Source: an uncultured Candidatus Saccharibacteria bacterium
GTDB taxonomy: Bacteria; Patescibacteriota; Dojkabacteria; J137
Direction of reading: 5' to 3'
Length of the DNA: 64,000 nt
Assembly: GCA_965230975.1 (NCBI GenBank)
Contig: OZ246402.1
Location: forward strand, 379,819 to 443,818
Under the pieces are notes generated by a model. The model made no database searches and was not told where the DNA came from. It was given only the letters and a program-made list of their open reading frames with translations. Of this stretch, positions 15,641-56,835 are shown in pieces. Both the position numbers and the translations under genes were made by a program. Each line of letters starts with the position of its first letter. The first letter of the stretch is position 1.

Positions 15641-15717
15641 GCTTAACAACTTTAATTAGCGATTAAACTACTGAATTACATCTCAGCAGGCTGAGATTGC
15701 TTTATATTCCAGCTAAA

Positions 15718-35945: not shown

Positions 35946-36006
35946 ATATAAAATACTGACAGAAATAAACAATAAGTGTTAGAATCCCCTCAATAAAAAG
36001 ATTTAT

Positions 36007-36933: not shown

Positions 36934-36939
36934 ACGTCC

Positions 36940-36974
36940 TTGACGTACACCTGGGGGGGAGGTATAGTATAGTC
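36940..36974 (+). promoter_or_regulatory. Sigma-70-like promoter overlapping a CsoR-type operator
   Basis: TTGACG-17 bp-TATAGT. The spacer holds the G7-centred pseudo-palindrome ACCTGGGGGGGAGGT, typical of CsoR operators. The csoR ATG lies 7 nt after the -10, so the mRNA may be leaderless or very short-leadered. Confidence 0.5.
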
Positions 36975-37244: not shown

Positions 37245-37249
37245 AAAAT

Positions 37250-37687: not shown

Positions 37688-37695
37688 TAAATAAC

Positions 37696-37932
37696 ATGAC
37701 TTATCAAATAACAGTACCACAAATAAAGTGCAATGGGTGCACATCTTTAATAACATTAACATTAGAAGATACTTTCGAAAATATAGAATCTAGTGTAGAA
37801 AACAAAACAGTAAAGTTTGAAAGTGATTTGAGAGAAGAAGATATAAAATTAAAACTAGATAAGCTATTCGAAGAACTTGAAGGTAATCAACATAAATACC
37901 ATTATACAGATTTAATTGTTTTGAATTCGTAA
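37696..37932 (+). CDS. copZ: Copper chaperone CopZ-like (HMA domain, CNGC variant)
   Basis: 78 aa. ITVPQIKCNGCTSLI fits the HMA ferredoxin-like fold with a CxxC metal site. Confidence 0.65.
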   Translation: MTYQITVPQIKCNGCTSLITLTLEDTFENIESSVENKTVKFESDLREEDIKLKLDKLFEELEGNQHKYHYTDLIVLNS

Positions 37933-37978
37933 ACAGATAATTACCAAATAATTAACGATAAGTTATTATATTTATTCC

Positions 37979-40336
37979 ATGCAAAAGACAACAATCCCAG
38001 TCAAAGGAATGCATTGTGCAAGTTGTGCATTAACAATAGAAAAAACGTTGAAAAAAGTAGATGGGGTTCAGGTTTGCGAGGTAAATTACGGGACAGAAAA
38101 GTTAAAAATTGAGTTTGATCCTAAAAAGACAGATTTAAAAACTTTAAATAGCAATATTGAACCCTTAGGATATAGTATTGATTCTGAAGTTGTAAGTCAA
38201 TCTTCACAATCACTTTCGCATACTATGCCCAATGGAACCGTAATGAAAGCATTGGAGCATGGAGTTCATGGAATGGATCATTCAGAGCATTTAGGTTTAA
38301 ATCAATTAAAAGAATCAAAGTTAAAAGAGCTTGAAGAACAAAAACAAAAGATTAGACTAATTTTACCAATTACATTGCTAACCTTTATATTAATGATGTG
38401 GGAGATTGGTTCAATGAGCTTCAGTTGGGTGCCCATGTTTTTAATTCCAAAAGAGATTTATTCAGCTGGGTCATTTTTGTTAGCAACATTAACTCTTTTT
38501 TGGATAGGAAAACCTTTTTTAAAAAGGGTTTTAACTTTTATTAAATATAGGGTTGCAAACATGGATACCTTGGTAGGAATTGGGACTTTAACTGCATATA
38601 TTTACAGCACAATTATTTACCTGCTTCCATCTGTTAGAAATTTATTAAATATCTCCGATTTTACATATTTTGATGTAACAATTGTTGTTATTGGCTTTAT
38701 AACATTTGGAAAATATTTAGAAGCTAGATCTAAATTAAAAACCGGCGAAGCAATTGAGAAATTAATTGGTTTGCAAGCAAAAACAGCATTGGTAGAAAGG
38801 GATGGAAAAGAATTAGAGGTTGCAATAGAAAATGTTGGAATTAATGAGGTCGTTATAGTAAAACCAGGTGGGAAAATCCCTGTAGATGGAGTAATTATTG
38901 AGGGTAAATCTAGTGTAGATGAGTCTATGATTACCGGAGAACCAATCCCCGTAGATAAAAATATTGAAGATACAGTAATTGGCGGAACAATAAATAAACA
39001 GGGTGCTTTTAAATTTAGGGCAACAAAAGTAGGCTCAGAAACGTTATTGGCAAACATAATAAAAATGGTAGAGGAGGCGCAAGGGTCACGAGCTCCAATT
39101 CAAAGACTAGCAGACCAAATTTCAGGTGTGTTTGTTCCGGTTGTATTGGTTTTAGCGGTTTTAAGTTTGATTGGCTGGGTTTTGATTGGGTCTCAGTATA
39201 TGCCGTTAAACCAGGCGTTTTCTTTTGGCATAGTTAATTTTGTGGGTGTTTTGGTTATTGCCTGCCCTTGCGCCTTAGGGTTAGCTACTCCTACTGCAAT
39301 AATTGTTGGGACTGGTAAAGGAGCAGAAAATGGGATTTTAATTAAAGATGCAGAAAGTTTAGAAAAACTGCATAAAGTAAATACTATTGTTACAGATAAA
39401 ACAGGAACTATTACAAACGGGAAGCCAGTTGTAACAGATATAATCGTAATAAAGTCCGAGAAATCATTCAACGACTCTAAAGCTTTGCAAATTTTAGCTT
39501 CGCTAGAAAAGAATTCGGAGCATCCATTGTCACTAGCTATCTTGGATAAAGCTAATGAGAGTGGGCTAGAACTTTCAAAAGTTGAAGACTTTGAAACAAT
39601 TTCAGGCAAAGGTTTAATGGGTAAGATTGATGGAGAAATTTATTACGCTGGTAACTTAAGGTTATTGGAAGATTTAAAAATTAATTTAAATGTTTCTCAA
39701 CTGGATACCTTATTAAACTCTGGAAAAACTCCAGTATTATTAGCTACAAAAAAGGAATTATTAGCAATTATTGGAATTGCAGATACATTAAAAGATAACG
39801 CAAAAGATACTGTGGCAAAACTTCACAAACTTGGAATTAAAGTGGTAATGCTTACGGGTGACAATCGAAAAACAGCAAATTATATTGCTAAACAAGTTGG
39901 AATAGATACTGTAATTGCAGAAGTTTTGCCACAAGAAAAGAGTATAAAAATCAAAGAGCTTCAAAAAGAGGGGCGATTTGTAGCTATGGTTGGGGATGGT
40001 GTTAATGATGCGCCCGCCTTGGCACAAGCAGATGTTGGTATTGCAATGGGAACAGGAACAGATGTTGCAATTGAATCTGCATCTATAACATTGTTAAAAG
40101 GTGATTTTTCTAAAGTTCTTAAATCAATAAGGTTGTCTAAATTTACTATGAGAGCTATAAAGCAAAATCTATTTTGGGCCTTTATATATAATGTTATTGG
40201 AATACCAGTTGCAATGGGTTTACTGTATCCACTCTTGGGAATATTACTAAACCCAGCAGTGGCCGGCGCTGCAATGGGATTTAGTAGCGTGTCGGTTGTT
40301 TTAAATTCTTTAAGACTAAAACTAACAAAGATATAA
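37979..40336 (+). CDS. copA: Copper-translocating P1B-type ATPase
   Basis: 785 aa. N-terminal HMA (GMHCASCA), CPC in TM6 ([10 protein letters not shown]), [17 protein letters not shown]. Confidence 0.92.
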
Positions 40337-40414
40337 ATTCTCAATATTTTTGTTTGAGCCTATGCAATAACCTCATTATCAAAAAAAAAGACTTACAACT
40401 TAAAACTAAAAAAC

Positions 40415-41452
40415 ATGTCAAACGAGAAATATAATTGCGAATATCAAGTAGAAGGTATGCATTGTGCAGCTTGCGAACTTGTTATAGAAAAGAAATTATC
40501 CAAATTTAAAGGGGTAAAAAGTGTAGACGCAGTTTTAAACCAAAATAAAGTATTTGTGCAATTTGAAGATGGAGTAGTGGGTTCAGCAATACGAGAGGAG
40601 CTTTCTAAATTAATTGAGCCGGATGGCTATAAACTTGTAGAAAACAGAGATTCAAAAAAACTAAATTATAAAGAATTAGTAATCGGTGCAGTTATTTCAA
40701 TTGCTCTATTGGCTGTATTCTTGCTAATTCAAAAATCAGGTTTAATTAATATTCAAGGAACTCAAGAGATTACTTTGCCATTTGTCTTTTTTATAGGAAT
40801 TATTGCATCCATTTCTACCTGTATGGCTGTCGTTGGTGGATTGTGTATCTCTATCTCATCAAGTTATGCAAAAGAGAATAAATTTTTGCCCTTGGCACTT
40901 TTTCATATTTCTAGAGTAGTTGGATTTTTTGTTTTAGGTGGTTTAATTGGATTGTTGGGATCGGCTTTTGTTTTAACTCCAGGGTCATCTTTTGGTTTAA
41001 ACTTAATTCTTTTTGGTGTAATGGTAATAATGGGAATTAACTTATTAGATATTTTCCCGTGGGCAAAAAGACTTCAAATAAGTATGCCCAAATTTATTTC
41101 AAGAAAAGCTTTTAAAGTTCAAGATGAAAACTCAAATAAAAAAGGATATTTAATGCCAATATTGTTAGGAGTTATTACCTTCTTTTTGCCCTGTGGATTT
41201 ACGCAATCTATGCAAATTTATTCTTTGGGTACAGGTAGTTTTATTAATGGGGCTTTAACTATGTTATTTTTTTCTTTAGGAACCTTACCGGTTTTAGGAT
41301 TAATTAGTTTTGCATCAGTTAAACTATCTAAAACTTTGCAATCAGGAGTATTCTTTAAAACATCAGGTTTTTTAGTTTTACTGTTCGCAATTTATAATTT
41401 GCTAAATGCTTTGTCTGCAGTGGGTTTTATAGAACCTATTTTGGGTTTTTGA
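40415..41452 (+). CDS. HMA-domain fused polytopic membrane protein (TauE/CcdA-like metal transporter family, putative)
   Basis: 345 aa. N-terminal HMA (EGMHCAACEL), then about 8 TM helices with an intramembrane FFLPCGFT motif. Confidence 0.55.
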   Translation: MSNEKYNCEYQVEGMHCAACELVIEKKLSKFKGVKSVDAVLNQNKVFVQFEDGVVGSAIREELSKLIEPDGYKLVENRDSKKLNYKELVIGAVISIALLAVFLLIQKSGLINIQGTQEITLPFVFFIGIIASISTCMAVVGGLCISISSSYAKENKFLPLALFHISRVVGFFVLGGLIGLLGSAFVLTPGSSFGLNLILFGVMVIMGINLLDIFPWAKRLQISMPKFISRKAFKVQDENSNKKGYLMPILLGVITFFLPCGFTQSMQIYSLGTGSFINGALTMLFFSLGTLPVLGLISFASVKLSKTLQSGVFFKTSGFLVLLFAIYNLLNALSAVGFIEPILGF

Positions 41453-42529: not shown

Positions 42530-43273
42530 ATGGAGTTTTTATATAGTCTTTTGGCAGCTTTTTTAGTTAGTTTGGTTTCGTTTTTAGGTATTGCTTTGTT
42601 TATTAAAAAATTGAATACAAAAAAATTATTTTTATCTGCACTTGTTTCTTTTGCTGCAGGTGCATTATTGGGGGATGCGTTTATTCACTTAATTGGTGAG
42701 TATATTGAAACAAACGGCTATTCTATAGATTTAATTATTCCAATTTTTGTTGGTATATTATTAATGCTTATTATTGAGGCATATTTTCACTGTAGTCATG
42801 ATTCAGAAGAAGAGCTTTCTCATCATGTTGCAATGGCAAAAAATAATTTAGTTGGAGATTCTATACATAATCTTTTGGACGGGATTGCAATCGCATCAAG
42901 TTTTATTGTTAACCCGGTTGTTGGAATTAGTTCAACTATTGCAATAATTATTCACGAGATCCCACAAGAGTTTGCAGATGCCGGAATTCTTTTATATTCA
43001 GGTTGGAGTAAGAAAAAAGTATTCTTAGCTAATTTTATTACAGCTTTAACTGCGGTTTTTGGAGTAGTTTTAGTTTTTATTCTTCAGTCACAAATAGAGG
43101 GTATTGAGAACTTTTTAATTCCACTAGCTGCGGGTCAATTTATTTATATTGCCCTGGCAGATTTGGTTCCAGAAATTCATAGAAGAAAGGGAGCTTTAAA
43201 ATATATTGTGGAAATTACTACATTCGTTTTAGGCTTTGTGGCCATGTACGCTTTAATTCTATTAGAAGCATAA
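42530..43273 (+). CDS. ZIP-family divalent metal transporter (ZupT-like)
   Basis: 247 aa. HEIPQEFADAGIL and HxxxD motifs in TM helices. Confidence 0.8.
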   Translation: MEFLYSLLAAFLVSLVSFLGIALFIKKLNTKKLFLSALVSFAAGALLGDAFIHLIGEYIETNGYSIDLIIPIFVGILLMLIIEAYFHCSHDSEEELSHHVAMAKNNLVGDSIHNLLDGIAIASSFIVNPVVGISSTIAIIIHEIPQEFADAGILLYSGWSKKKVFLANFITALTAVFGVVLVFILQSQIEGIENFLIPLAAGQFIYIALADLVPEIHRRKGALKYIVEITTFVLGFVAMYALILLEA

Positions 43274-43418: not shown

Positions 43419-44051
43419 ATGGACTTTTTACCCAGAGAAAAGCTTTTAAAATATGGCCCTGATAAACTTTCAGATTCGGAGCTTTTGGCATTATTACTTA
43501 GAACTGGCAAAAAGGGCCAAAGTGTAACTATTTTTTCTAAGATTATTTTAAAAGATCTGTTAAAGATTGGAGTAAGTAATTTAACTTTAAAATCGTTAAT
43601 GAATATACAGGGGTTGGGTCTTGCCAAATCTTGTGAGATTTTGGCAGCTTTGGAGCTTTCAAAACGTTTATTGCAAGGCAAAAAAAACACAATTATTATG
43701 TCTCCTAAAGATGTTATGCTTGCCATGCAAGACATTGTTTTATCTAAAAAAGAGCACTTTGTTGTGTTTTATTTAGATAGTCGTAATCAAGAAATTATTA
43801 GGGATATTATATCTATAGGTTCACTAAATAATAGTTTTGCCCACCCAAGAGAGATTTTTGAGAATGCTATAAAAAACAATGCGGCGTCTATCATTATTGC
43901 GCATAATCACCCTTCTCAAGACCCAACCCCGTCAAATGCTGATATTGAAATTACTAAACGAATTTTAGAAGCAGGTAAAATTTTAGGCATAGAAATGCTA
44001 GACCATGTAATAGTTTCAAAAAATAAATGGTGGAGCTGGAAAGAGGGTTAA
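43419..44051 (+). CDS. radC: RadC-family JAB-domain protein
   Basis: 210 aa. HhH N-terminus and HNHPSQDPTPSNADIEITKR JAMM motif. Confidence 0.85.
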   Translation: MDFLPREKLLKYGPDKLSDSELLALLLRTGKKGQSVTIFSKIILKDLLKIGVSNLTLKSLMNIQGLGLAKSCEILAALELSKRLLQGKKNTIIMSPKDVMLAMQDIVLSKKEHFVVFYLDSRNQEIIRDIISIGSLNNSFAHPREIFENAIKNNAASIIIAHNHPSQDPTPSNADIEITKRILEAGKILGIEMLDHVIVSKNKWWSWKEG

Positions 44052-47000
44052 TCGTTATTCAATATGAGATTAATCAACTTTAGGCTCAACGTAGGGTTTT
44101 GATACTCTTTTATTTGTTCCAATAAGTGTGATAAGGCTGTTAATAAATCTCTTAGCATTTGTGCAAATGCACTGTCTTGTTCGAATGTAAATCCGGCAAG
44201 TATTGCTAACTCAACAAGAGCGTAATATATATCGCCTGAACTTGCAGTATTATTGATTAATGACTTATTAACTTTTGCTGATTGGCCATCCAAAATTAAT
44301 ACTAGTAACTTTTTTAGCATTTTTATCTGTTCCTCAGTTGCAACTTGGTATATTTGCGCAAATTGGTTATTAAACAGAGCAGTATAATATGCAATTACTT
44401 CATTTGCTCTTCCTCCGTTCAGTCGTTTTTGACTGCTTTTTGAAGCGTAATTTTCTATAAGTATTTGATTCTCGTTGATAAGTTGGCTAATTCTTGCATT
44501 AGCATCTCTTTTTTTTGTTTGAGTATTTAGCTCATTTTCAAGTTGAGTAATTCTTTTTTGTGATTCCACTTTAGCTTTTTCTGCATTTAGTTTGTTAATC
44601 TCTACATCCTTCTTTCTTAACTCCTCTGCTAGATTTGCTTTAGCTTCAGCATTTAGTCTTGCTTCATTGGCTTCTGATATATATTTTGCACTATCTGCAA
44701 TCAATCCAGCATTTTGATCTCTAATTTTTCTTTCTTCTTGGATTGATTCTCTTCGTTCCTGATCTACAGCATCCATCTGCTCCCTAAGACCTTCTATTTC
44801 AGCATTTAATCTAGTTACTAAGTTTCGAAGTTCTGTTATTAAATTCTCATTAGCTTGAGTGTTGGCTTGATTCATTGCATCCATGCGTTCTAATAGTTGA
44901 GTTGTGATTTGATCGTGCTGATCTATTATAGCTTGTCTATCTTGAGCGTTAGCAACTCTATTTCTTTGAGCCTCTTCAGCTTGGTGGGCTAATAAAGCAT
45001 TTATAGTATTAAAAGTACCTTCATTAATTGCACTAATAATTTCTGCTACATTTTGTTGTGGTGCTACTGGAGCAGGGTTACTAGGCAGTGGATTTGGTAT
45101 TTGTGGTCCTGCAGGTGCTGGTGGGGTAGGATCATCTGGTGTTGGTCTAATATCATTCAGATTGTCGTCTTGGGTTACAGGCCTATCAAAGTATTTTTGG
45201 ATTTCAGTTAATAATCCATCATAATTATTATATAGTTCATTAATTCTATTTTGTATATTCCTCATGCCATCTTGTGTAGGATTTTGAATAAATTCTCTAA
45301 CTTCTTTAATCAGTTCCCTAATCCTTACATCTAGGGTTTTTAGTCGAGTTTCAAATTCTCGTCGAATTTCTGGTGATAATTCTCTAATATAATCAACTTC
45401 ACCTAATAATCTTCTTAAATCGTCAATTACTGAATTTGCATTATCAATCGCATTTAACGCATCTCTTAAATTTTGCAACTCAGTATTAATTTCGGACAAG
45501 TCTCCAATGATAGCTTGTCTATTCTGGTTAGCCTCTACAACTAATCCTAAAGATATATTGTCTTTAACATTACTATTAGCCCTTTGGTTTACAATGTTTT
45601 CATTTTTAGGGCTTAGTCTGTTAATAAATTCTCTTAAAAACCTCCCAATTTTAGTATTTGGCCTGTCCCAGAAATTATTTATTAAGAAATTGATTAAACT
45701 TGCATATTGATTAGGTAGCTTTTGAATAGTAGCTTGCTCATCTGTCTGTGTAGTATTATTTAATAATTGTTGTAGCCTTATAAGTTCTCCTATAAATTTA
45801 TTTAACTCAGCCCTATTGATATTAGGGATTCTATTTGCATCAATAGGTTGTAATTGTGGCGGGATGTGAGTTTGGTTTCTAATTACTTGGAACTGTTGTA
45901 TACCATTTGGATCTAAATTCAATATATCTTGTGGTTGCACATTTTGTAGTCCTTGATCTTGGCTTACAACTGCTGGTCTAACTGGTGTTGGTACCTGATC
46001 TGCTACTGGGGCTGGTGGTACAACTGGTTGAGGTCGCACTCGGTTTGGATCAGCAACCGCTGGTTGACCTTGTCTTCGAGCAACTTGTGCCCTTTGTTGT
46101 TGATTGGCATCTGCGCCTGGATCTCGTGCAGGAAAAAATCCTAAATCTCGTTGTAATTCAGCAATCCTTCGATCAAATTCATCGATCTGATCTTGATCCG
46201 CGACAAGATCGTCGTCATCGTCGAAATTGAGGTCATCAAATTGATCATCGTTATCAAAATTAAAATCTGGTAAGTGATCAGGTTGATCAACTTGTGCTAC
46301 ATCCCTTTGATTTGGATGGGCACCTACATCTACAGCAGGATCATTTACTTGATTTTGTGCAACTTGCCTAAGCCCAGGATCTCTTATATTTGCATTGTTG
46401 TAAGCTAGTACTATATTTGCTAAAAACTGGTTTATTTCCTCAATTTCCTGCGGATTTGCTCTATTAATACCTCTTCTATTTATAACTTGTAACAATCTTC
46501 TTGCTTGGAATTGTAATATTCTCCATTCCGCTAAATTTCCAGCAAACTCCTGTGGAATAGCAAGCACAGCATATGCTAAGTCTCTTAATTGATTCACTCT
46601 TTGAGTGTTAAGTCTTTGCCCATTAGGAGTATTTAAATTTGCAGTTATTCTGCCTAAATCAGGAACCCCAGGAATAATTAAATTATAGTTATTGTTATTT
46701 CTGTTGCCAAAATTATCGTGAATAGGTTGTTGTTGGACAACAGCCTGTTGAACTACTTGAGCTTGAGGTAATACTGGATTCACTCCAGCCGGAGGATAAG
46801 CCAAAAAGTATTGTCTTAATACATCATCTATGGCAGCATTTATAGCTTGAGGGTTAGGTCTTCTGGCATTTAAAAGAACATTTAAATTAAAGAGTGCTTG
46901 TAAAATTGGTATATTTTGGTTAGCGTTATTAGGAAATATTCCTCTTAAATTGTTTACTAGGTTCCTTAAATCTGTTCTTAGCTGTCTATTTCTACGCCAT

Positions 47001-49780
47001 GTTAAAACATTTGCTGGCCATCTCAAGTTTGGATTTAGCAACATCACTCGTATTTGATATGGCAAAACAATAAACTGTTCAGGTGTTAATATGAATGGTT
47101 GTCCAAATAAATTATTTATTGCATAGTTAGGATTTTGAGGGTTTCCTGGTCGCTGAACATTTATAGGTGGATAAGCAAGTGGAGCATTAGCGCCGTTACC
47201 CAGTGCATTGTTTTGTGCATATTGTTGATTCCCTGCATTATTTCTTCTTCGTAAGGCCAAAAAACCTAATATCCCTGTAGTAATAATTCCTACTCCTGCT
47301 GCAACTTCTCTGCTAACTCCGAGCTGATTAAAAAGAAAATCACTTGGCCCTGCTCCAAAATCTACAGGTCCTATAACAATTCCAGGTCCACCGGGCGGTA
47401 ATAATCCTCCCAATGCCGGTGTTGCACCAATACTAGGTGTGCCTATAAATCTTAAAACCCCAGGGTAAGCAAATCCATGAGTAATTGGATTGTTTTGAAA
47501 TATCTCTGGTCTTGCAGCTATCGCTCTTTGTGCTGCAGCAACTGCAATACCATGATCAGGGTGATTTACATTTAACATAGCATTAATATCAATCCCTGCA
47601 AAGCCAGATGTCCTAGCATTTGAAAGTATTGCTCCAATTCTTGCAATATCCTCAGCTGTAATGTCAGCAGTTGTATTTCCATGTCCTAATATTTCATGAA
47701 TAGCTCTTTCTGCTCCTGCCGGGTCAAATCCTGCACCTGGTGCTCTAAAGTAGTTTTGAATGTCTTGAATAGCATTTACTAATTGAACTCTATCAGCAAC
47801 TGGGTTTCCCCATTCATTAGCCCAAGCATTTGCTGCATTTTCATCTATTAATTGTGTTGTGGTAGCACCTGGAAGTATTCTCTCCATAGTCCTCCCAGCA
47901 GAATTTTTGGCATCTTCCAAAACTTGATTCCCAGCATTCCCATTTGGTGTATTTGCATCACCATCTAAGACAGGTTTGCCACCTACGTTATTATTTAAAA
48001 GCTCGTTTTCTTGATTTAAATTACCACCTTTAATATTCAAATCTTTATTTCTAGCTTCGTCTATTTCATTAAAGATAGCACCTTTAACCGGAATGTTTTT
48101 TGCTCTTAACTCGTCTTCTAAAGCCTGCTTAACTTCTCCAATATTCTTTTTCCCATCTAACAGTCTATTTAATTCAGGATCATTTTCTTTTGCTAACTCA
48201 AAATGCTTAACAGCTTCTTCATGAGAGATATTGAATGTTTCTCTTAAAGATCTAATTATAGGATTGTTTATTGCATTCAAAATACCGCTCATATCTCCGT
48301 AAAATCTCATCATACCCTGACTTTGTTTAGCATATTTTTCCCTAATTGCTAGTTCCTCTCTTTCTGTTGCACCTTCTAAAGCTTCAATTTCTGCCTGTGC
48401 CATTTGATCTGCTACTTTGTTCATTACACCAGCTGTTATTACTCCTACAATTGCACCAGCGCCTGATCTGAAAATTGGATTTTCAATGTTACCTGTTCCC
48501 GCTTTAGCAATTAGAGCCATGGTAGTAACTATTCCAAGATTTTTTCGTACTTCAGGATCTATCTTATCTAACTCTTTCACTCCAAATCTTGCTAAATCAA
48601 AACCACTCCTTACAGCATCTGTAAGAATATACAGAGGACTGTTTGTGACTCGGGCTGCAACATAAAGACCAGACATAGCACCTCTTGTTCCTGCTTCTAC
48701 AACCATTCTAGAATTAACTCTATCAAAAGATAAATTCTTATCAAACTTATTAATCATTGAATAGATTTTGTGCTCGTCACTTAAATCTAGTCTTAAAATC
48801 TCAGGATCTAGTATGTATTTAATTAATCTTGTAAATTGCTCATTACCTTCTTCAGTATGATTTTTTATTAAGTTAAGATCTTTTTTTGTTAAATCTAATT
48901 TTTGCTTTAGAAAGTCAAAGGCATGATTACTACGTGGATTACCAGATCGAATAAGCATTAATTGTCTTAGTAGGAATACTCGGGGGTTTGCTTGCATTGC
49001 TTCATCTGATAAATCAATTGCAATAGGAATACCAGTCTCTTCATCTACGTACCCATCTATTACATTAATTCCCCATGTTCCTGAATGTTGACCAGGAATT
49101 ACTACGTTTTGGTTGTATTTGTAAAAGCCAGTATCTTCTAAAGAAGTCATTTTTTGCTTGATATCTTTTAGCCCAGGAATTATTTGAGTTGCTGAAACTG
49201 CCGTTCTTAAACCAAATTTCCCAAGCCTATTTAAAAGTGAGACCTCTTTTCTGTTAGTTTGAACCGGTTCTGTATTTTGTTCTGATTCCCGCTCAACACC
49301 CATAAAGTAATCTAGATCAGCTTGACTTAGTTCTGACTGGTTGCTTTTAACCAAGTACTCGGTTGGAGCCACTACTAGATTCTCCATTCGGAATTTTGAT
49401 GCAAATATTTCAAAATCTTGGGTAGGTTGACCATCTTTTGTTTGGTACTCGCATAAAACAAAAGAACCTCTATTGGTTTTAAATACTAGAATGTTTTGAG
49501 CTAGTAATAATTGAGCAACTTCTTGATTAATTTGAACATCTTTAATTACAACTGGGAATTTAAGTCCTAATAATCTAGTGACAAATGTTTGTATATTGGG
49601 ATTTGCTGGTCTTTCAAATCCATCGGGTAACGGTGGAAGAGTATCTCTAATTTGCGAGTTGTAAAGTTTAGCTACAGGTCTCTCGCCAGTCACTTGTCTA
49701 GCTCGCATATCTTCAAACGTAAACCCTTCTTTTTGGGCTTCTGCTCTTAGTTCATCTGTAGGTCTGCCAAATAACTTCAT
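44048..49780 (-). CDS. Giant protein (1910 aa): N-terminal globular region, central hydrophobic segment, Q/N/P-rich low-complexity and acidic tracts, C-terminal coiled coil
   Basis: Single uninterrupted ORF. Central GVGIITTGILGFLALRRRNN TM-like segment, poly-Asp (DDDDD) tract, PxxP-rich segments and a long heptad-like C-terminal region. No catalytic motif recognised. Confidence 0.7.
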   Translation of the reverse strand: MKLFGRPTDELRAEAQKEGFTFEDMRARQVTGERPVAKLYNSQIRDTLPPLPDGFERPANPNIQTFVTRLLGLKFPVVIKDVQINQEVAQLLLAQNILVFKTNRGSFVLCEYQTKDGQPTQDFEIFASKFRMENLVVAPTEYLVKSNQSELSQADLDYFMGVERESEQNTEPVQTNRKEVSLLNRLGKFGLRTAVSATQIIPGLKDIKQKMTSLEDTGFYKYNQNVVIPGQHSGTWGINVIDGYVDEETGIPIAIDLSDEAMQANPRVFLLRQLMLIRSGNPRSNHAFDFLKQKLDLTKKDLNLIKNHTEEGNEQFTRLIKYILDPEILRLDLSDEHKIYSMINKFDKNLSFDRVNSRMVVEAGTRGAMSGLYVAARVTNSPLYILTDAVRSGFDLARFGVKELDKIDPEVRKNLGIVTTMALIAKAGTGNIENPIFRSGAGAIVGVITAGVMNKVADQMAQAEIEALEGATEREELAIREKYAKQSQGMMRFYGDMSGILNAINNPIIRSLRETFNISHEEAVKHFELAKENDPELNRLLDGKKNIGEVKQALEDELRAKNIPVKGAIFNEIDEARNKDLNIKGGNLNQENELLNNNVGGKPVLDGDANTPNGNAGNQVLEDAKNSAGRTMERILPGATTTQLIDENAANAWANEWGNPVADRVQLVNAIQDIQNYFRAPGAGFDPAGAERAIHEILGHGNTTADITAEDIARIGAILSNARTSGFAGIDINAMLNVNHPDHGIAVAAAQRAIAARPEIFQNNPITHGFAYPGVLRFIGTPSIGATPALGGLLPPGGPGIVIGPVDFGAGPSDFLFNQLGVSREVAAGVGIITTGILGFLALRRRNNAGNQQYAQNNALGNGANAPLAYPPINVQRPGNPQNPNYAINNLFGQPFILTPEQFIVLPYQIRVMLLNPNLRWPANVLTWRRNRQLRTDLRNLVNNLRGIFPNNANQNIPILQALFNLNVLLNARRPNPQAINAAIDDVLRQYFLAYPPAGVNPVLPQAQVVQQAVVQQQPIHDNFGNRNNNNYNLIIPGVPDLGRITANLNTPNGQRLNTQRVNQLRDLAYAVLAIPQEFAGNLAEWRILQFQARRLLQVINRRGINRANPQEIEEINQFLANIVLAYNNANIRDPGLRQVAQNQVNDPAVDVGAHPNQRDVAQVDQPDHLPDFNFDNDDQFDDLNFDDDDDLVADQDQIDEFDRRIAELQRDLGFFPARDPGADANQQQRAQVARRQGQPAVADPNRVRPQPVVPPAPVADQVPTPVRPAVVSQDQGLQNVQPQDILNLDPNGIQQFQVIRNQTHIPPQLQPIDANRIPNINRAELNKFIGELIRLQQLLNNTTQTDEQATIQKLPNQYASLINFLINNFWDRPNTKIGRFLREFINRLSPKNENIVNQRANSNVKDNISLGLVVEANQNRQAIIGDLSEINTELQNLRDALNAIDNANSVIDDLRRLLGEVDYIRELSPEIRREFETRLKTLDVRIRELIKEVREFIQNPTQDGMRNIQNRINELYNNYDGLLTEIQKYFDRPVTQDDNLNDIRPTPDDPTPPAPAGPQIPNPLPSNPAPVAPQQNVAEIISAINEGTFNTINALLAHQAEEAQRNRVANAQDRQAIIDQHDQITTQLLERMDAMNQANTQANENLITELRNLVTRLNAEIEGLREQMDAVDQERRESIQEERKIRDQNAGLIADSAKYISEANEARLNAEAKANLAEELRKKDVEINKLNAEKAKVESQKRITQLENELNTQTKKRDANARISQLINENQILIENYASKSSQKRLNGGRANEVIAYYTALFNNQFAQIYQVATEEQIKMLKKLLVLILDGQSAKVNKSLINNTASSGDIYYALVELAILAGFTFEQDSAFAQMLRDLLTALSHLLEQIKEYQNPTLSLKLINLILNND

Positions 49781-49781
49781 A

Positions 49782-50189
49782 TTAATTTGTTACCTCTTTA
49801 TAAATTTGTTCTAAATCCACAGTTTCATCAGTATCTTTCTTATGCTTTTGAATAACATCAGTTGCTTTGTTTAAACTTTCTATAAAATTATTTAAAAATT
49901 CATTAATAAAATCGTCTACTTTTTTACCAGTTTTTTTTTCAAAAGAAATAGTTAACATTCTTGCTATTTTTAATTCATCTGTAATGTTTTTTAGATCAAT
50001 ATATGCCTTAAACTTGCTAATTTCGGATTGGTTGTGAGCATTTAAAACTAGTCTAGAAACATAAGCAGATAGTAACGCTTCTAGCTCTGCGTAAAACTGT
50101 ACAGCCAATTCTTTTGGCATGTTTAAATCTTTAAAAAACTCTAAAACCTTAGAGTGGGTATCAAATGTAATATGTTGTAATGAATTCAT
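49782..50189 (-). CDS. Small acidic hypothetical protein translationally coupled to giant gene
   Basis: 135 aa. Its stop TAA lies 1 nt before the giant ORF's ATG (TAAtATG). Confidence 0.4.
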   Translation of the reverse strand: MNSLQHITFDTHSKVLEFFKDLNMPKELAVQFYAELEALLSAYVSRLVLNAHNQSEISKFKAYIDLKNITDELKIARMLTISFEKKTGKKVDDFINEFLNNFIESLNKATDVIQKHKKDTDETVDLEQIYKEVTN

Positions 50190-50354
50190 TATTTAAACAG
50201 TTTGAAAAGCCTTATACAATAACTTATTTGCGAATTGCTAAAAAAGATATTTTTACATATCAGCTCATTCTATACATTCTAATTTAAGGTTTCAATACTA
50301 ATTGCAATAAACCCTAAATTAATCTAACATTAAATAGTATTTAATTATAACAAT

Positions 50355-50852: not shown

Positions 50853-51959
50853 ATGGAACCGCACCCAGTACCACAAAACATAATAGATGTAGAATTCAAA
50901 TTATTTGGCTCATTCAGCTTAAGACAATTTGGCCAAATATTAATAGGGTGCATGGTTGCAGTTATTGTGTACTTTATACCAATTGTTCCAATAATAATAA
51001 AAATCCCTGTAATTATAATTGCAGTTATTTCAGGGCTTTTATCTGCGGTTATTCCAAACTTTGGAACCTGGATGATTGGTTTTGCAAAAGCTTTAATAGT
51101 AGATCCTAGATACGTTTGGGTAAAAGAACCTGCCAGAAGTGATATTTTAGAACAAACCAAAACACAGCCAACAACAAAAGCTGTATCAAAAACTGATGAA
51201 ACTAAAGCAGATAAACTTGAATCTTTAATGATTGCAGATGCTATAGATGAAAAAGATGATGTGATGGAAGACTTTTTAATGAATGGTAAAGCACCTCAAA
51301 AGGATGGATTTAATAATTTATACGATAGAGTTTTTGTAGATGCAACTCCTAAGCCCATTGCCTCACAACAAGTTGATGATTCAAAATCAACTAATGAACC
51401 GGGCTTTCAAAACATTCAACAAACACAATTAGAGCAGGTTAAAGAAAAACCTTTAGATATAACAGATAATGCGAATCTGAAAGAAGTTAAGCCTTTAACA
51501 AAAGAAGATATTCTTAAGCAAATGGAACAGTTGAGATTGCAGTTAAGGCAATACAGCAAAGAATCTAATAAGGAAAAGGAGATGGAGGTTATGAGTCAAA
51601 TTAATGATTTGTATAATCAATACAAGTTAATGCAAAAAGAAGAACCAAAAGTAGTTGTAGCTGGTTCTAAAGAAGTACAAAACTTTGCAAAAAATGTTGA
51701 TCAAGGCAAAATTATATTTGGAATTGTTGTTACAAAGTCTGATAAACCTGTAGCAGACGCAGAAATTACATTAACTAATTTTGAAACCAAGGAGTCATTT
51801 ACAGGTAAAAGTAATTCTGATGGTAAATTTTCTACTGCTAAAAAGCTTCCTTTTGGAAAGTATGATGTTCAAATATTTCACCCAAACTTAACTTTTCATA
51901 CTTATAGGGTAGAAGTTGTAGATTCTTTATTACCTGCTTTTAAGTTTAGAGAGAAGTAG
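50853..51959 (+). CDS. PrgI-family (VirB3-like, type IV secretion-associated) membrane protein with C-terminal carboxypeptidase-regulatory-like domain
   Basis: 368 aa. N-terminal VPQNIIDVEFKLFGSFSLRQF plus two TM helices, as in PrgI-family proteins. C-terminal GIVVTKSDKPVADAEITL...SDGKF resembles a CarboxypepD_reg beta-sandwich. Confidence 0.5.
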   Translation: MEPHPVPQNIIDVEFKLFGSFSLRQFGQILIGCMVAVIVYFIPIVPIIIKIPVIIIAVISGLLSAVIPNFGTWMIGFAKALIVDPRYVWVKEPARSDILEQTKTQPTTKAVSKTDETKADKLESLMIADAIDEKDDVMEDFLMNGKAPQKDGFNNLYDRVFVDATPKPIASQQVDDSKSTNEPGFQNIQQTQLEQVKEKPLDITDNANLKEVKPLTKEDILKQMEQLRLQLRQYSKESNKEKEMEVMSQINDLYNQYKLMQKEEPKVVVAGSKEVQNFAKNVDQGKIIFGIVVTKSDKPVADAEITLTNFETKESFTGKSNSDGKFSTAKKLPFGKYDVQIFHPNLTFHTYRVEVVDSLLPAFKFREK

Positions 51960-52334
51960 TTAAATTATAGGTGGGTAGCTAAATTCAATGCCTTTAATCT
52001 CTTCTTCTGTAACTGTTGCGACCTCAACCCACTTTGTTAAAGAAGGTATTCTATCATCAGGGTAGCCAGTAAATTTTTCTTTAGTGCACCGAACTATAGA
52101 AGGAGTTCTATTAGCAGTCAACTGGTTATAAAATCCTATAGAATCTCCCTCAAAAGAAACTCTTGCATATGTCCACGGTATTTCATTTATTGTTTTTTCA
52201 TCATGATAACTGTTATTGTATCTATACTTTACTACACCTTTTTTATCAGCAATATCTTTTAACCTTTCGAATGCTTCTTCTTTAGAAATTATTGGGGTTT
52301 CTGGTAATTGTTCAGGAAATGGATTATTTGACAT
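51960..52334 (-). CDS. Hypothetical protein (124 aa)
   Basis: ORF between the PrgI-family gene and tRNA-Leu. Confidence 0.4.
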   Translation of the reverse strand: MSNNPFPEQLPETPIISKEEAFERLKDIADKKGVVKYRYNNSYHDEKTINEIPWTYARVSFEGDSIGFYNQLTANRTPSIVRCTKEKFTGYPDDRIPSLTKWVEVATVTEEEIKGIEFSYPPII

Positions 52335-52425
52335 TTTTATTTATTAATTATTGAATATCATACATCAAATAGTTTTTATTGCCAATTTGTTAAGGTTGAG
52401 AAACTTAATCTATATTGAAGTATAA

Positions 52426-52508
52426 TACCGGGGGAGGGACTCGAACCCTCACGCCCTTAAGGGCAACGGATTTTAAGTCCGTCGTGTCTACCATTCCACC
52501 ACCTCGGC
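52426..52508 (-). tRNA. tRNA-Leu (anticodon UAA), imperfect acceptor stem
   Basis: D-arm GUGG/AAUGGUAG, anticodon stem ACGGA/UCCGU with loop CUUAAAA, long variable arm, T-arm GAGGG-UUCGAGU-CCCUC. The acceptor GCCGAGG/CCCCGGU has a G1-U72 pair and an A-C mismatch. Confidence 0.65.
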
Positions 52509-52650
52509 ATTTAAATAACTTGCTTTGAAGAGCATTGAATTATAACCTCTGCCTTAAAATTTTTAAATAGATAATTTCTTAAATATGTTCTGACTGTTTT
52601 AAAATTTCGATTTGTGGGCTAATTTAAAAAATCCTCAAGTACAAATTTTG

Positions 52651-53194: not shown

Positions 53195-53770
53195 ATGGGT
53201 AATTCTAACAAAAACAAAATGCTAAAAATATTGCAATATGGCAGTCCAATTTTGGAAAAGCCAACAAATAAAGTTGAAAACGTAAAAGATCCTAAAATAT
53301 TAAAACTAATAGACGAAATGCTAAAAGTTTTAGAAAAAGAAGAGGATCATTCTGCAGGCCTATCTGCACCACAAGTGGGGCAAAGTCTAAAAATCGCAAT
53401 TTGTAGAAGATTAGATTTAGAAGATGAGCTACAAGATAAAAACAAACAACAAAATATTGTAAAAAAAACAGAAGCAATTTGGGAAGTAATGATAAATCCG
53501 CAAATAACATATAAATCTAACGACAAATCTACAAAATGGGAAGGTTGCTTAAGTGTAAACCAGGGTGAATTATTTGGTGAAGTAACAAGGCCTAGAATAG
53601 TAAAGGTTAAATATACAACTATTGAAGGTAAAGAAGTTGAAATTATTGCAGATGGATACTTTTCTCATGTTGTGCAACACGAATTAGATCACTTAGACGG
53701 CGTTTTATTTTTAAAATATATAAACGACCCAACAAAACTGTACACTCCGGACGAAATAGAAGATCTATAA
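53195..53770 (+). CDS. def: Peptide deformylase (with internal insertion)
   Basis: 191 aa. GLSAPQVG, EGCLSV and HELDHLDG motifs. An extra acidic/K-rich insert lies between motifs 1 and 2. Confidence 0.85.
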   Translation: MGNSNKNKMLKILQYGSPILEKPTNKVENVKDPKILKLIDEMLKVLEKEEDHSAGLSAPQVGQSLKIAICRRLDLEDELQDKNKQQNIVKKTEAIWEVMINPQITYKSNDKSTKWEGCLSVNQGELFGEVTRPRIVKVKYTTIEGKEVEIIADGYFSHVVQHELDHLDGVLFLKYINDPTKLYTPDEIEDL

Positions 53771-53811
53771 AAATCATTGATAGCAACCAATATTAAGATT
53801 ACAATAGATTC

Positions 53812-55260
53812 ATGATTAAATTATCTGCAGAAGAATTCTTAAAATTCATACCTGGATATATTATTGATATATCTGAAAAGCTACAAGAGTCCGGTTATCA
53901 CGCCTATCTTGTTGGCGGATCTATTAGAGACATACTTTTAGAAAAACAACCAGACGACTTTGACATTGCAACAAACGCTTACCCTGAAGAAATAATGAAA
54001 ATATTTCCCAAAAGCATTCCAACAGGAGCTAAATTTGGAACAATCACAGTAATCGCAGAAGATGAGAACGGAGAGAAATTTGAAGTCCAAATAACCACAT
54101 ATAGATCAGAGGCAGATTACATAGGTGGCAGATGGCCATCTAAAGTTGAGTTTAGTAGAGAGATTGAAGATGACTTATCCCGAAGAGATTTTACAATTAA
54201 TGCTCTAGCTCTTAACTTACAAAGATTTGATGAAAAAGATATTGCAGTAGATCAGTTGATAATAGATCTATTTGGTGGCTTAAATGATTTAAAGGCTAAA
54301 AGAATTAGGGCGGTTCGAGACCCTTTCGAAAGATTTTCAGAAGATGGCTTAAGATCAGTAAGAGCTTGCAGACTAGCCTCACAATTAAATTTTAAGATAG
54401 AGCCAAAAACTTTTAATGCAATAAAACAAGCGTTGCACATTACAAAAATGGTATCTGTTGAAAGGTTTAGAGATGAACTAATGAAGATTTTATTAAAATC
54501 ATCTCAACCTTCTAAAGGATTACTTTTATTAAAAGAGAGTGGAATATTAAATATTTTTTTACCTGAGTTATTAGAAGGTATTGGAGTAAATCAGCCACAA
54601 TTTCATGCAGATGATGTGTTTATCCATTTATTAAAAACTGTAGATGCTGCTGAAGATAGCATTAAACTTGCTGCACTTTTTCATGATATTGCAAAACCTA
54701 GAACAATGACGGTAGATGATAAAGGCGTTCATTTTTATGGACACGATGTTATGGGAGCTCAAATGACTAAAGATATTATGAAGAGACTGAAGTTTTCTAA
54801 TTCAGAGATAGAAAAAACATCTAATTTAGTAAGATGGCATATGTTTTACTACCCTTCGGCCGATTGGAGAAAAACAGAAGAAAGTAAAAGATCTGCAGAT
54901 TTAGGCTGGACAGATGCAGCAATAAGAAGGTTTATTCAAAATGTTGGTGGAGAAGATGCAGTAGATGACCTTATGAAATTGAGAATTGCAGATGCAGCTG
55001 GTAACCCAAAAAGTGAATTTGATGCTAAAGAGTTAGATGCCCTATCTCAAAGAATAGCAGAGGTTAGGGCAAAAGAGATGGCTTTAAAAATTACAGATTT
55101 AGATATTACTGGTCACGATTTAAAAGATAATTTTGAAATTGATGGCAAACAACTAGGCGATGTTTTAAGGTATTTACTTGATAAAGTAATAGAGGAGCCC
55201 GCATTAAATAAAAAGATAGATTTACTTAGATTGGCAGAGGAGTATATAGATAAAGAGTAG
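53812..55260 (+). CDS. cca: CCA-adding tRNA nucleotidyltransferase with HD domain
   Basis: 482 aa. Pol-beta head (GGSIRDILL, DFDIAT) and HD domain (LFHDIAKP). Confidence 0.85.
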   Translation: MIKLSAEEFLKFIPGYIIDISEKLQESGYHAYLVGGSIRDILLEKQPDDFDIATNAYPEEIMKIFPKSIPTGAKFGTITVIAEDENGEKFEVQITTYRSEADYIGGRWPSKVEFSREIEDDLSRRDFTINALALNLQRFDEKDIAVDQLIIDLFGGLNDLKAKRIRAVRDPFERFSEDGLRSVRACRLASQLNFKIEPKTFNAIKQALHITKMVSVERFRDELMKILLKSSQPSKGLLLLKESGILNIFLPELLEGIGVNQPQFHADDVFIHLLKTVDAAEDSIKLAALFHDIAKPRTMTVDDKGVHFYGHDVMGAQMTKDIMKRLKFSNSEIEKTSNLVRWHMFYYPSADWRKTEESKRSADLGWTDAAIRRFIQNVGGEDAVDDLMKLRIADAAGNPKSEFDAKELDALSQRIAEVRAKEMALKITDLDITGHDLKDNFEIDGKQLGDVLRYLLDKVIEEPALNKKIDLLRLAEEYIDKE

Positions 55261-55302: not shown

Positions 55303-56835
55303 ATGGAGCAAAACCAGCAAACTAAAAGAAAAAAGATAATTGTTATAGCACTATTAGTATTAACAATCCTTTTAGGTGCGGTTGCTGTCTTCATCTCTTA
55401 TTATATTCAGCAAAACCAAAGCCCAGAAAGTAGTAGTGCAGATGCTGCTTGTGATACCGCAGATCAATGTTTTACATTTGAACTGGCAAATAGTATTCAA
55501 TGTCAAAAGTCTGGAGCTACAAAAAATTGCTGCCCTGCAGGGACTCAAATAGATAATTCCATTAGAGCTTGTATATCTGCTTGTAATGTTAAAAATAATA
55601 ACTGTACTCCAGTTACTACTCCCCTATCTGGTTCTACGAGGTGTTATTTTGCAGATCAGATTTATAATTGTTGCCCCGGAACTCAAATTGCTCAAAATGG
55701 AACATGTGTAGATGGCAGTTCTTCCTCTGCGACTTGCCCATTCGGTACAAGTATAAATTCATCAAAAACTTTATGTGTTTGCGACAATAATAGTACCTTT
55801 ACTTATCCTATTGGAACAGTAAGTGCAAATTGTCCAAAATCTTGTAGTGATGCGGGAGGATCATGCCAAACAAGTGCTTGTAAAACAGGCCAAACTACAG
55901 TAACAAACGGCGTTTGTAATGGGGGAGGTTTTTGTTGTAGTGGTACAGCAACTAGTACGGATACTCAAAACCCCGATACCCAGACCCCTGGTGGCCAAGT
56001 TAGCGGCTCTTGTGGAAACGGTGGTTCATGTTTTTTACAGGGTGGAAGTTTTAATGGGGTTACTGTAAATAACTGTGGAAGTGTGGGTAGGGTTGACTCA
56101 TCACCAAATAGTTGTGGGGCGGGATATTTATGTTGTAGTTTAACGAACAGTGGAAGCTCTTCGTCTGGCAACTCAAATAACGGAGCAACAACTACAACAA
56201 AATCTCAATGTGGAGGTACTTGCAATACAAGTTCTGACTGTGCTGCTTCTGCAACTGGTGTTACTGTAACATGTAGAAATGGTGTTTGTGAAAATGCATC
56301 TTGTACCGTTGGTAAAACAGTTCCAGGAGCAAATTGCGAGTGTAGTACTTTGAATGCTTGTGGACAAGCATGTAGCGCAAGCTTAGGTCTTTGTCAGTCC
56401 GGATCAGAGTGTGGGTTTATTGGATCTCCAACTTCTTGTGTTCAAAACGAGGGTTTAAATAATGGAACCCAATTTTGCCTTCCGCAAAACCCATCTAAAG
56501 GCTATACACTTACTTCTTGCACAGGTTTATCTGCTCTTAATTTAAGAAGCCCTTTGGGTACAAATGTAACAAGTCAAGCACAAGTTTTAGAAGCGTGTAA
56601 CTTGATAACTCAATCAAGTGGAGTAGGAAGTTCAGGGCAGTCAAGTGCGTCAGTTTGTGGAGATAGTGTTTGTTCTGCTAATGAAAGTAGCTTCACTTGT
56701 CCTGGAGATTGTACTTTGCCGGATACCGCAATAGTATCAGATAGATTTGATAGGGTTATAATAGGAATTTTTGTAATAATCTTGGGTATAAGCTTAGCAG
56801 GCGGGTTTGATAAACTAAGAAGAGTAGTCAAATAA
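55303..56835 (+). CDS. Secreted Cys/Gly/Ser/Thr-rich protein with C-terminal tail anchor
   Basis: 510 aa. N-terminal TM/signal, more than 50 Cys in repeated CxxGxxC-like spacing, then a C-terminal hydrophobic helix and RRVVK tail. Confidence 0.5.
   Translation: MEQNQQTKRKKIIVIALLVLTILLGAVAVFISYYIQQNQSPESSSADAACDTADQCFTFELANSIQCQKSGATKNCCPAGTQIDNSIRACISACNVKNNNCTPVTTPLSGSTRCYFADQIYNCCPGTQIAQNGTCVDGSSSSATCPFGTSINSSKTLCVCDNNSTFTYPIGTVSANCPKSCSDAGGSCQTSACKTGQTTVTNGVCNGGGFCCSGTATSTDTQNPDTQTPGGQVSGSCGNGGSCFLQGGSFNGVTVNNCGSVGRVDSSPNSCGAGYLCCSLTNSGSSSSGNSNNGATTTTKSQCGGTCNTSSDCAASATGVTVTCRNGVCENASCTVGKTVPGANCECSTLNACGQACSASLGLCQSGSECGFIGSPTSCVQNEGLNNGTQFCLPQNPSKGYTLTSCTGLSALNLRSPLGTNVTSQAQVLEACNLITQSSGVGSSGQSSASVCGDSVCSANESSFTCPGDCTLPDTAIVSDRFDRVIIGIFVIILGISLAGGFDKLRRVVK

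Follow-up and report, generated by a model that had tools for sequence, protein, structure and literature searches.

A giant helical protein with three strain-variable modules and a small partner gene in Candidatus Dojkabacteria

The subject of this report is a gene for a protein of 1910 amino-acid residues, here called the giant, and the small open reading frame (ORF) of 135 residues that directly precedes it. The pair lies in a stretch of 64,000 nucleotides from contig OZ246402.1 (assembly GCA_965230975.1), which is referred to as the window. When the window is compared with a second strain, three modules of the giant appear as anciently diverged alleles within one species, and the stalk and linkers that join them, like the flanking genes, are nearly identical. 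The giant may be a membrane-associated fibrous protein that serves as a determinant of strain-specific recognition or attachment, most plausibly towards host cells. This reading is given a probability of about 0.4. The gene itself is real and selected, and it forms with the small ORF a pair that is specific to Candidatus Dojkabacteria.

Variable modules in a conserved scaffold

The locus of the second strain (L003) carries P0004, the ortholog of the window giant, and has the gene order of the window: a 137-aa ORF, the giant and a convergent radC. By blastn, DNA identity in the flanks is 96-99%, whereas within the giant gene a match (about 97%) is confined to residues 555-634 and 851 to about 1684. 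The giant can be divided into five blocks on this basis. Divergence between the window and L003 was estimated by the Nei-Gojobori method and is given as synonymous divergence (dS), nonsynonymous divergence (dN), their ratio (omega) or the proportion of synonymous differences (pS):

48119..49780, minus strand: V1, variable, residues 1-554 (N-terminal domain); about 29% amino-acid identity, dS saturated (pS 0.75), dN 0.73
47879..48118, minus strand: C1, conserved, residues 555-634; DNA 97.5% identical, dS 0.074, omega 0.32
47231..47878, minus strand: V2, variable, residues 635-850 (juxtamembrane domain and transmembrane helix); about 25% amino-acid identity, dS 1.44, dN 0.96
44744..47230, minus strand: C2, conserved, residues 851-1679; DNA about 97% identical, dS 0.043, omega 0.61
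44051..44743, minus strand: V3, variable, residues 1680-1910 (end of a long helix and C-terminal bundle); about 24% amino-acid identity, dS 1.32, dN 0.99

The borders are sharp. At residues 554/555, 634/635, 850/851 and 1679/1680, identity flips between about 100% and about 25% within 1-2 residues. C1 and C2 together have a dS of 0.04-0.07, a dN of 0.024-0.026 and an omega of 0.32-0.61. The genes for radC, a Zip transporter and proteins of 185 and 510 aa are identical in both strains (dS 0, dN 0), and the other flanking genes reach a dS of 0.12 and a dN of 0.016, with omega between 0 and 0.5. The small ORF is itself divided: the two strains agree fully in its residues 1-43 and differ beyond them (dS 0.79, dN 0.24), so that the first variable tract spans from residue 44 of the partner to residue 554 of the giant.

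The variable blocks are the modules that are predicted to fold, V2 including a small helical region besides the transmembrane helix. The conserved part consists of the low-complexity linkers and most of the coiled coil; C2 holds the linkers rich in glutamine, asparagine and proline (Q/N/P), an acidic run, three helical clusters and the first coiled-coil segments. An earlier annotation made from the window alone (the first-pass annotation) had called these stretches low-complexity. The description fits the Q/N/P- and aspartate-rich linkers in composition, but they are not dispensable filler, being about 97% identical with an omega of 0.3-0.6.

Both haplotypes recur in independent samples, that of the window in SRR12762303/4/5 and ERZ795034, and that of L003 in SRR12404957 and SRR32414321 (99.6% identity). 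On this evidence they are best described as two stable, discrete allelic forms and not as ongoing hypermutation. Long direct or inverted repeats and silent cassettes, of the kind considered for diversity-generating retroelements, shufflons or cassette switching, are absent from the locus, and the window holds no orphan cassette copies of the giant's modules. The simplest mechanism would be that divergent alleles recombine homologously, the conserved blocks serving as anchors.

The gene pair and its reading frame

The two genes, their junction and a promoter-like site upstream are arranged as follows:

44048..49780, minus strand: giant ORF, 1910 aa; its stop codon is at 44048-44050 and its 3' end overlaps the convergent radC by 4 nt
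49782..50189, minus strand: small partner ORF, 135 aa, directly upstream of the giant ORF
49778..49784, minus strand: TAAtATG, the stop/start junction from the small ORF to the giant ORF
50267..50295, minus strand: promoter-like site (TTGAAA, a 17 nt spacer, TAGAAT), about 78 nt upstream of the start codon of the small ORF

These coordinates and the sequence of the junction bear out the earlier description of an uninterrupted 1910-aa ORF coupled to a 135-aa ORF through TAAtATG. AGAGG, which resembles a Shine-Dalgarno sequence, stands a few bases upstream of the junction. The promoter-like site agrees with the consensus at 10 of 12 positions, which is a consensus match only, of a class that is not enriched over shuffled sequence in this region. 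The window has a G+C content of about 32%, and with its base composition a stop codon is expected every 13 codons or so; 1910 stop-free codons would arise by chance with a probability of about 10^-66.7.

Exactly the same 1910-aa protein is found on a 1.19 Mb NCBI contig and in two separate Logan assemblies, and the 5' part of the gene recurs with 100% identity on a 2.3 kb contig from another run. An assembly artefact is excluded because the identical sequence occurs in at least three independent assemblies, and the suspicion that the ORF might be a chimera, raised with the first description, falls with it, as these assemblies come from different runs.

The SufB protein encoded in the window is 80-85% identical to SufB from metagenome-assembled genomes (MAGs) of Candidatus Dojkabacteria (WS6) or the 'Patescibacteria group'. 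Judged by this protein, the source organism is a bacterium of the Candidate Phyla Radiation (CPR/Patescibacteria), Candidatus Dojkabacteria, in line with the small-genome host that had been assumed.

Architecture of the giant

The giant is predicted to be an all-alpha, partly hydrophobic protein with three modules, which are joined by linkers rich in Q, N, P and aspartate and by a coiled-coil stalk. The N-terminal module would combine a conserved TGFYKY...GxWGI core with a pair of hydrophobic helices rich in glycine and alanine. The middle module is a putative juxtamembrane domain that ends in a glycine-zipper-like helix and an arginine cluster, and the C-terminal module probably comprises the end of the coiled coil and a helical bundle. 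The main segments are:

48914..49234, minus strand: residues 183-289, the most conserved stretch of the three-member family, with TGFYKY at 217-222 and G(T/K)WGI at 234-240
48422..48538, minus strand: Gly/Ala-rich hydrophobic helix pair, hairpin-like, residues 415-428 and 440-453; more hydrophobic in the relatives P0004 and P0005
47237..47305, minus strand: glycine-zipper-like hydrophobic helix, transmembrane-like, residues 826-843, followed by RRRNN at 844-848; helix and arginine cluster are kept in all three family members
44435..45550, minus strand: heptad-like long-helix region, residues 1411-1533 and 1590-1782, with a proline-rich linker at about 1534-1589 between them; it gives generic coiled-coil profile matches only

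The strongest Kyte-Doolittle peak (1.84-2.04) is VAAGVGIITTGILGFLAL, residues 826-843, followed by RRR. This is the central segment that had been reported as the single transmembrane-like one. It is indeed the dominant peak, and 'single' is only approximately right because of the weaker Gly/Ala-rich helix pair at residues 415-453. The stretch at residues 183-289, which lies within V1, is the sole part that can be recognised in the distant relative P0005.

In composition the giant has 10.3% asparagine, 7.4% glutamine and 5.7% proline, and an acidic run covers residues 1165-1203 (nt 46172-46288). The earlier claim of Q/N/P-rich and acidic low-complexity stretches is thereby confirmed. So is that of a heptad-like C-terminal region, since proline-free, heptad-like stretches are found at residues 1411-1533, 1616-1753 and 1863-1895.

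Structure prediction, which the first-pass annotation had proposed, gave two low-confidence AlphaFold models, each built on a three-sequence alignment, from which only secondary structure was used. Their mean predicted local distance difference test (pLDDT) scores are only 38 (residues 1-640) and 43 (residues 851-1910). Long helices are predicted at residues 1417-1531 and 1590-1782. V3 would contain the end of a helix of about 140 residues, and after it a terminal helical bundle at about 1792-1908.

The sequence of the giant reads without an N-terminal signal peptide or hydrophobic N-terminus. Self-BLAST finds no internal protein repeats, and there are no tandem DNA repeats in the gene region. 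A sortase-anchored (LPXTG) surface protein was considered and rejected: the LPxTG motif occurs nowhere in the giant, the signal peptide is missing, and the hydrophobic helix with its RRR is at residues 826-846 of 1910 and not at the C-terminus.

Relatives of the giant

An exhaustive HMMER search of 1.84 billion cluster representatives with residues 1-850 as the query returned two relatives only: P0004, with 1867 aa (E 2.6e-101), and P0005, with 1877 aa (E 3e-7). The three-member alignment found no relative among GTDB species representatives, nor did phage, plasmid and IMG/VR collections contain one, and an origin of the giant from a mobile element was rejected on the latter result. JGI metagenomes gave no match to the conserved core of the giant and none to the alignment of the small ORFs. 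Word-indexed searches with the full-length giant retrieved the giant itself only, and those with residues 1400-1910 retrieved nothing, not even their own protein. These searches are uninformative and not negative, because low-complexity and coiled-coil words saturate the prefilter of 8000 candidates.

The whole protein has no match in Pfam, NCBIfam, PHROGs or PADLOC. Among PDB sequences there is only a marginal coiled-coil match to BST2 (E 0.01). When sub-regions of all three family members were scanned against Pfam with E values up to 5, generic coiled-coil noise below the curated cut-offs was obtained, for example a sub-threshold match to ATG17_like (32.7 bits against a cut-off of 43). That the architecture fits no family that can be named thus holds for Pfam, NCBIfam, PHROG, PADLOC and PDB sequence searches, none of which gave a significant match. 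Tape-measure, SMC and known adhesin families, which had been suggested as possible identities, likewise have no significant profile match in Pfam, PHROGs, NCBIfam or PDB sequences.

No description of the giant family or of its small-partner module was found in the literature. The sequence family and the module are new to it, and their general kind, a fast-evolving mosaic interaction protein with a dedicated small partner, is familiar.

The small partner as the marker of a module

The small ORF encodes a helix-prone protein with an isoelectric point (pI) of 5.57. It had been described as acidic, which suits the family (pI 4.1-6.4 among the homologs) and holds only mildly for the window protein. 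Homologs of 135-162 aa are encoded in the window, in L003/L004 and in the loci L005, L015, L016 and L017, in each case directly before a giant. All six match each other by phmmer and share two motifs, one like LQPL[VI]xE[YH] and the other [FY]E[EK]K[TV]GK. A hidden Markov model (HMM) built from their alignment (A4) finds no other match in 85 fetched loci.

The distance from the end of the small ORF to the start of the giant ranges from -8 to +9 nt, and in the relatives the two ORFs overlap by 8 or 4 nt or stand 9 nt apart. In L005, a 162-aa small acidic ORF ends 9 nt before the start of the P0005 giant. The genome of this locus belongs to a more distant member of the Dojkabacteria, with housekeeping proteins 58-76% identical to those of the window. 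The other three loci, which were found among sufB loci fetched for taxonomy, have acidic small ORFs of 140-154 aa that each overlap the start of the giant by 8 nt. The pairing of small ORF and giant, for which a check of synteny had been suggested, thus recurs in a second strain and, judged by homologs of the small ORF, in four further lineages of the Dojkabacteria.

The partnered giants in L005, L015, L016 and L017 have 1647-1997 aa. Sequence searches relate the window giant (P0001) to P0004 and P0005. Phmmer, hmmsearch and hhalign detect no signal between these three and the giants of L015/L016 or L017, so that the giants fall into three groups. None of the partnered giants has a Pfam domain or a signal peptide. 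They share a loose layout, in which Gly/Ala-rich hydrophobic segments are followed further on by a Gly/Leu-rich helix with an arginine-rich tail.

In L005, L015, L016 and L017 the module is beside sufB, and in L005 and L017 dus is on its other side. In the window the position next to sufB lacks the module, which is at the radC/tRNA-Leu locus instead. The most economical reading is that of a vertically inherited two-gene module in which the partner evolves slowly enough to be recognised and the giant diverges extremely fast. By the same economy, the module would have moved from the sufB-dus to the radC/tRNA-Leu locus in the lineage of the window.

In place of partner and giant, the interval from sufB to dus in the window (6483-10812) contains three ORFs of only 173, 267 and 129 aa, which implies that the module was relocated or replaced. 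In four further Dojkabacteria genomes, a different ORF of 1300-1355 aa begins 18-44 nt after sufB (L006 11362-15312, L007 4202-8110, L010 11318-15253 and L011 11375-15439). These ORFs have no small partner, form two sequence groups and are unrelated to the window giant. The Dojkabacteria seem to use the site next to sufB for giant genes in general.

A few candidate similarities of the small ORF were rejected. A match to PHROG 28843 (E 5.5e-5) is attributed to chance, as only one of the six family members has it, and a HamA-like PADLOC match (E 0.0019) is regarded as noise. A profile search of the PDB with the family gave nothing below E 0.03, and the small ORF has no tetratricopeptide repeat (TPR) signature.

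In L005 (GCA_034680565.1, contig JAXOUH010035941.1), a 166-aa ORF at 15631-16131 overlaps the stop codon of the P0005 giant by 4 nt; neither the window nor any other locus with the module has a corresponding ORF. This assembly consists of more than 35,000 contigs, and the contig is probably from a large mixed or host-associated assembly.

A possible recognition protein

The small partner is translated just before the giant, probably with translational coupling. If the giant serves strain-specific recognition, the partner might bind its N-terminal module as a chaperone or adaptor, perhaps shielding the hydrophobic helices. The giant would be associated with the membrane, where its variable modules could contact something that is itself variable between strains or co-evolving. 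In an epibiotic CPR bacterium this would most plausibly be the surface or membrane of the host cell and less likely phages or competitors. Alleles would be swapped by homologous recombination, with the conserved blocks as anchors.

The giant diverges faster than all the genes around it, and discrete, domain-swapped haplotypes are expected of an arms-race or specificity molecule. The first-pass annotation had proposed a host-interaction factor at the cell surface. Host interaction gains indirect support because three blocks are extremely diverged between near-identical strains; surface exposure gains none, as there is neither a signal peptide nor a recognisable secretion domain.

Several points weigh against recognition as the role of the giant. 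Besides the missing signal peptide or recognisable export domain, the N-terminal part of 825 residues has no obvious export route, and the arginine cluster on the C-terminal side of the main helix predicts that the C-terminal part of 1060 residues is cytoplasmic, which argues against a simple N-in/C-out arrangement. The two low-confidence models (mean pLDDT 38 and 43) supply no evidence for function from fold. The dN/dS of the variable blocks is unreliable since dS is saturated, and with two alleles and one distant homolog only, diversifying or balancing selection cannot be told apart from the chance import of a few sequences out of a divergent lineage. An interaction of partner and giant is suggested by adjacency, coupling and shared divergence, and linkage in one recombination tract would explain the same. 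The epibiotic lifestyle of this organism is an assumption.

A more specific version of the recognition reading is doubtful. Partner and giant would form a novel CPR cell-cell interaction device that is Sec-independent, partner-assisted and membrane-inserting, and its three recombining modules would set the host range. The logic would be analogous to that of phage receptor-binding proteins, with the difference that the giant is unrelated to any known family. Were this true, the modules would decide which host cells a Dojkabacteria strain attaches to or exploits.

To our knowledge, host recognition and attachment by ultra-small CPR bacteria are largely unexplained beyond a few cultivated Saccharibacteria. 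In these, type IV pili and type IV secretion systems are implicated in host attachment. The module offers a concrete recognition candidate in a different, uncultivated class, the Dojkabacteria, and the HMM of the small ORF is a practical marker for giants that could otherwise not be recognised in other genomes.

Alternative explanations

Two alternatives are unlikely to the same degree. The giant may belong to a polymorphic-toxin-like or effector system, in which it would be delivered to neighbour or host cells, one or more variable modules would act as a membrane-inserting toxin, and the small ORF would encode a chaperone or immunity protein. Candidates for the toxic part would be the Gly-rich hydrophobic helices, which are glycine-zipper-like, or the C-terminal bundle. 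The sharp borders between conserved and variable parts, among them that of the variable C-terminal 230 residues or so, agree with this, as do the coupling of the small gene, its co-variation with the adjacent module, and the missing signal peptide, which LXG- or Rhs-type cargo also lacks. On the other side, Pfam and NCBIfam find no trafficking domain (LXG, PAAR, Rhs, TPS, VENN) and no toxin domain in any allele. Downstream of V3 there is no immunity candidate, the convergent radC being identical in both strains; orphan cassettes are missing from the window, and the 10 kb or so to each side encode no secretion machinery. The small ORF, upstream and conserved where the giants are unrelated, fits an adaptor better than an immunity protein. 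The second alternative is an intracellular or membrane-tethered scaffold or cytoskeletal protein for shape, division or an attachment structure, whose mosaic would be a by-product of recombination under weak constraint. An all-alpha build with long coiled coils and disordered linkers suits such a protein, and so do the lack of an export signal, the arginine cluster that would place the C-terminal part in the cytoplasm, the relaxed omega of 0.61 in C2, and the patchy dS of the flanks (def 0.12, CCA enzyme 0.06, others 0), a sign that recombination is active in the species. Weak fibrous constraint, however, predicts the opposite of what is seen: the diverged blocks are the predicted folded modules and include the only motif shared across genera. 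They are sharp-edged at domain boundaries, and they are more diverged (about 25-29% amino-acid identity, dS saturated) than housekeeping proteins of different genera are from each other (58-76% identity). If the giant were intracellular, it would show that 'low-complexity' parts can be conserved while folded modules are exchanged.

The remaining explanations are less probable. One of them turns on a neighbour of the module:

50853-51959, plus strand: 368-aa protein with a PrgI/VirB3-like N-terminus of two transmembrane segments and a C-terminal CarboxypepD_reg beta-sandwich

It is improbable that the giant is a membrane sensor against phages or invaders, working by abortive infection or exclusion, with variable modules that recognise proteins of phages or mobile elements. 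Hypervariable modules between conserved blocks within a species are typical of the specificity subunits of defence systems, and the gene is near a tRNA-Leu where strains differ by insertions. Yet PADLOC matches nothing in the giant and only the weak HamA-like hit in the small ORF, Pfam scans of the giant find no NTPase, nuclease or other effector domain, most lineages keep the module at a stable sufB-dus position and not in a defence island, and its immediate neighbours are housekeeping genes. Even less is to be said for a substrate or accessory component of a Patescibacteria type IV secretion system, an idea that comes from the divergently transcribed gene listed above. Many Patescibacteria have PrgI/VirB3 homologs, which are reported to be essential for epibiotic growth in one Saccharibacterium (PMC12102498), the N-terminus of the 368-aa protein resembles PrgI (E 9.4e-6), and the giant lacks a Sec signal peptide. 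Against this stand the PrgI score of 26.5 bits, below the Pfam cut-off of 27; the failure to match VirB4, a coupling protein or VirB6 among those window ORFs that were scanned, a subset of the whole; and the lack of the PrgI-like gene at the four other loci with the module. A single homolog of it was found (E 5e-57), in the Dojkabacteria genome KatS3mg085 (L008 19092-20108), at a locus without the module. The PrgI-like gene is also near-identical between the window and L003, as is the 160-aa gene beside it, and neither co-varies with the giant. Since the linkage is not conserved, the adjacency is probably incidental, with no functional link to type IV secretion. Finally, a chimeric assembly or a decaying pseudogene is scarcely credible. 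Low-complexity DNA can mis-assemble and no homologs of the giant are found outside one clade, but the 5.7 kb ORF is identical in at least three assemblies from different runs, the orthologous ORFs of 1867 aa in the other strain and 1877 aa in another genus are intact, tandem and long repeats are missing from the region, the conserved blocks show measurable purifying selection, and a stop-free frame of this length is not expected by chance (10^-66.7).

Comparison with known systems

Polymorphic toxins include Rhs proteins, CdiA and the LXG toxins, which have small helical Lap partners in type VIIb secretion. Like them, the giant is large, has no Sec signal peptide and carries highly divergent modules that meet its conserved regions at sharp borders, including a variable C-terminal module at which identity falls from about 97% to about 24% (residues 1679/1680). 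Its alleles would likewise be exchanged by recombination, and a small helical protein, apparently matched to the adjacent module, is encoded directly upstream. Unlike them, it has no LXG, PAAR, Rhs, TPS or toxin domain and no co-varying immunity gene downstream. Its variable modules are three (N-terminal, middle and C-terminal) and not one, a transmembrane helix is in the middle of the protein, and genes for type VII, VI or V secretion systems are not seen among the annotated ORFs of the window.

Conserved scaffolds with variable domains are also found in the M-like fibrillar proteins of streptococci and in phage tail fibres. Flagellin is reported to be a mosaic surface antigen with a conserved scaffold and variable domains (PMC7018530). 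The giant resembles these proteins in that a fibrous, alpha-helical and coiled-coil scaffold is conserved within the species and discrete domains appear as very old allelic lineages, probably shuffled by homologous recombination. It differs from them in having no signal peptide, cell-wall anchor, flagellar or phage context, or sequence or profile similarity, and in having a transmembrane helix inside a variable block.

The translocators of type III secretion have class II chaperones (IpaB/IpgC, YopB/LcrH). By analogy, the giant also follows a small acidic gene and combines coiled coils with a hydrophobic helix pair. It is three to four times larger than these translocators and has no homology to them, and the small ORF lacks their chaperones' TPR signature. 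We know of no type III secretion system in CPR bacteria.

Very large, lineage-restricted ORFs in host-dependent lineages, with a proposed role in cell-cell interaction, are a further point of likeness with the giants of predatory and episymbiotic ultra-small prokaryotes. By its title, 'Giant genes are rare but implicated in cell wall degradation by predatory bacteria', one study (10.1101/2023.11.21.568195) reportedly ties such genes to cell-wall degradation. Unlike those, the window giant has no recognisable domain, is predicted to be all-alpha, and has a small partner and intraspecific mosaicism.

Neighbouring genes and other features

The immediate neighbours of the module in the window are housekeeping genes, and the wider flanks also contain a copper-handling cluster. 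The module had been placed between radC and an orphan PrgI gene. The radC gene is indeed the convergent neighbour and the PrgI-like gene is near, but a 160-aa ORF intervenes between the small ORF and the 368-aa gene, and the PrgI match is below threshold.

Genes for a CsoR-like repressor and a cupredoxin, for a CopA-type P-type ATPase (37979-40336) and for an HMA-DsbD_2 protein (40415-41452) make up the copper-handling cluster (about 36000-41452); after it comes the gene for a Zip-family transporter (42530-43273). Synonymous divergence from L003 is patchy in the flanks (53195-55260 and 40415-41452), with 0.12 for def, 0.06 for the CCA-adding enzyme and 0.035 for HMA-DsbD, which suggests frequent short recombination tracts across the chromosome.

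The tRNA-Leu(taa) is at 52425-52509, and the window holds no att-like duplicate of it. An adjacent 124-aa ORF (51960-52334, minus strand) is present in the window and in L004 and missing from L003. L004 has an insertion of about 7.5 kb beside the tRNA-Leu (275-7760), which is missing from the window and L003 and encodes glycosyltransferases, a GH31 enzyme, an epimerase and a methyltransferase.

Elsewhere in the window, two ORFs have no Pfam match, one of 573 aa (15718-17439, minus strand) and one of 510 aa (55303-56835, plus strand), the latter identical in the window and L003. A bacterial class A RNase P RNA is encoded at 1745-2173 on the minus strand (130.5 bits).

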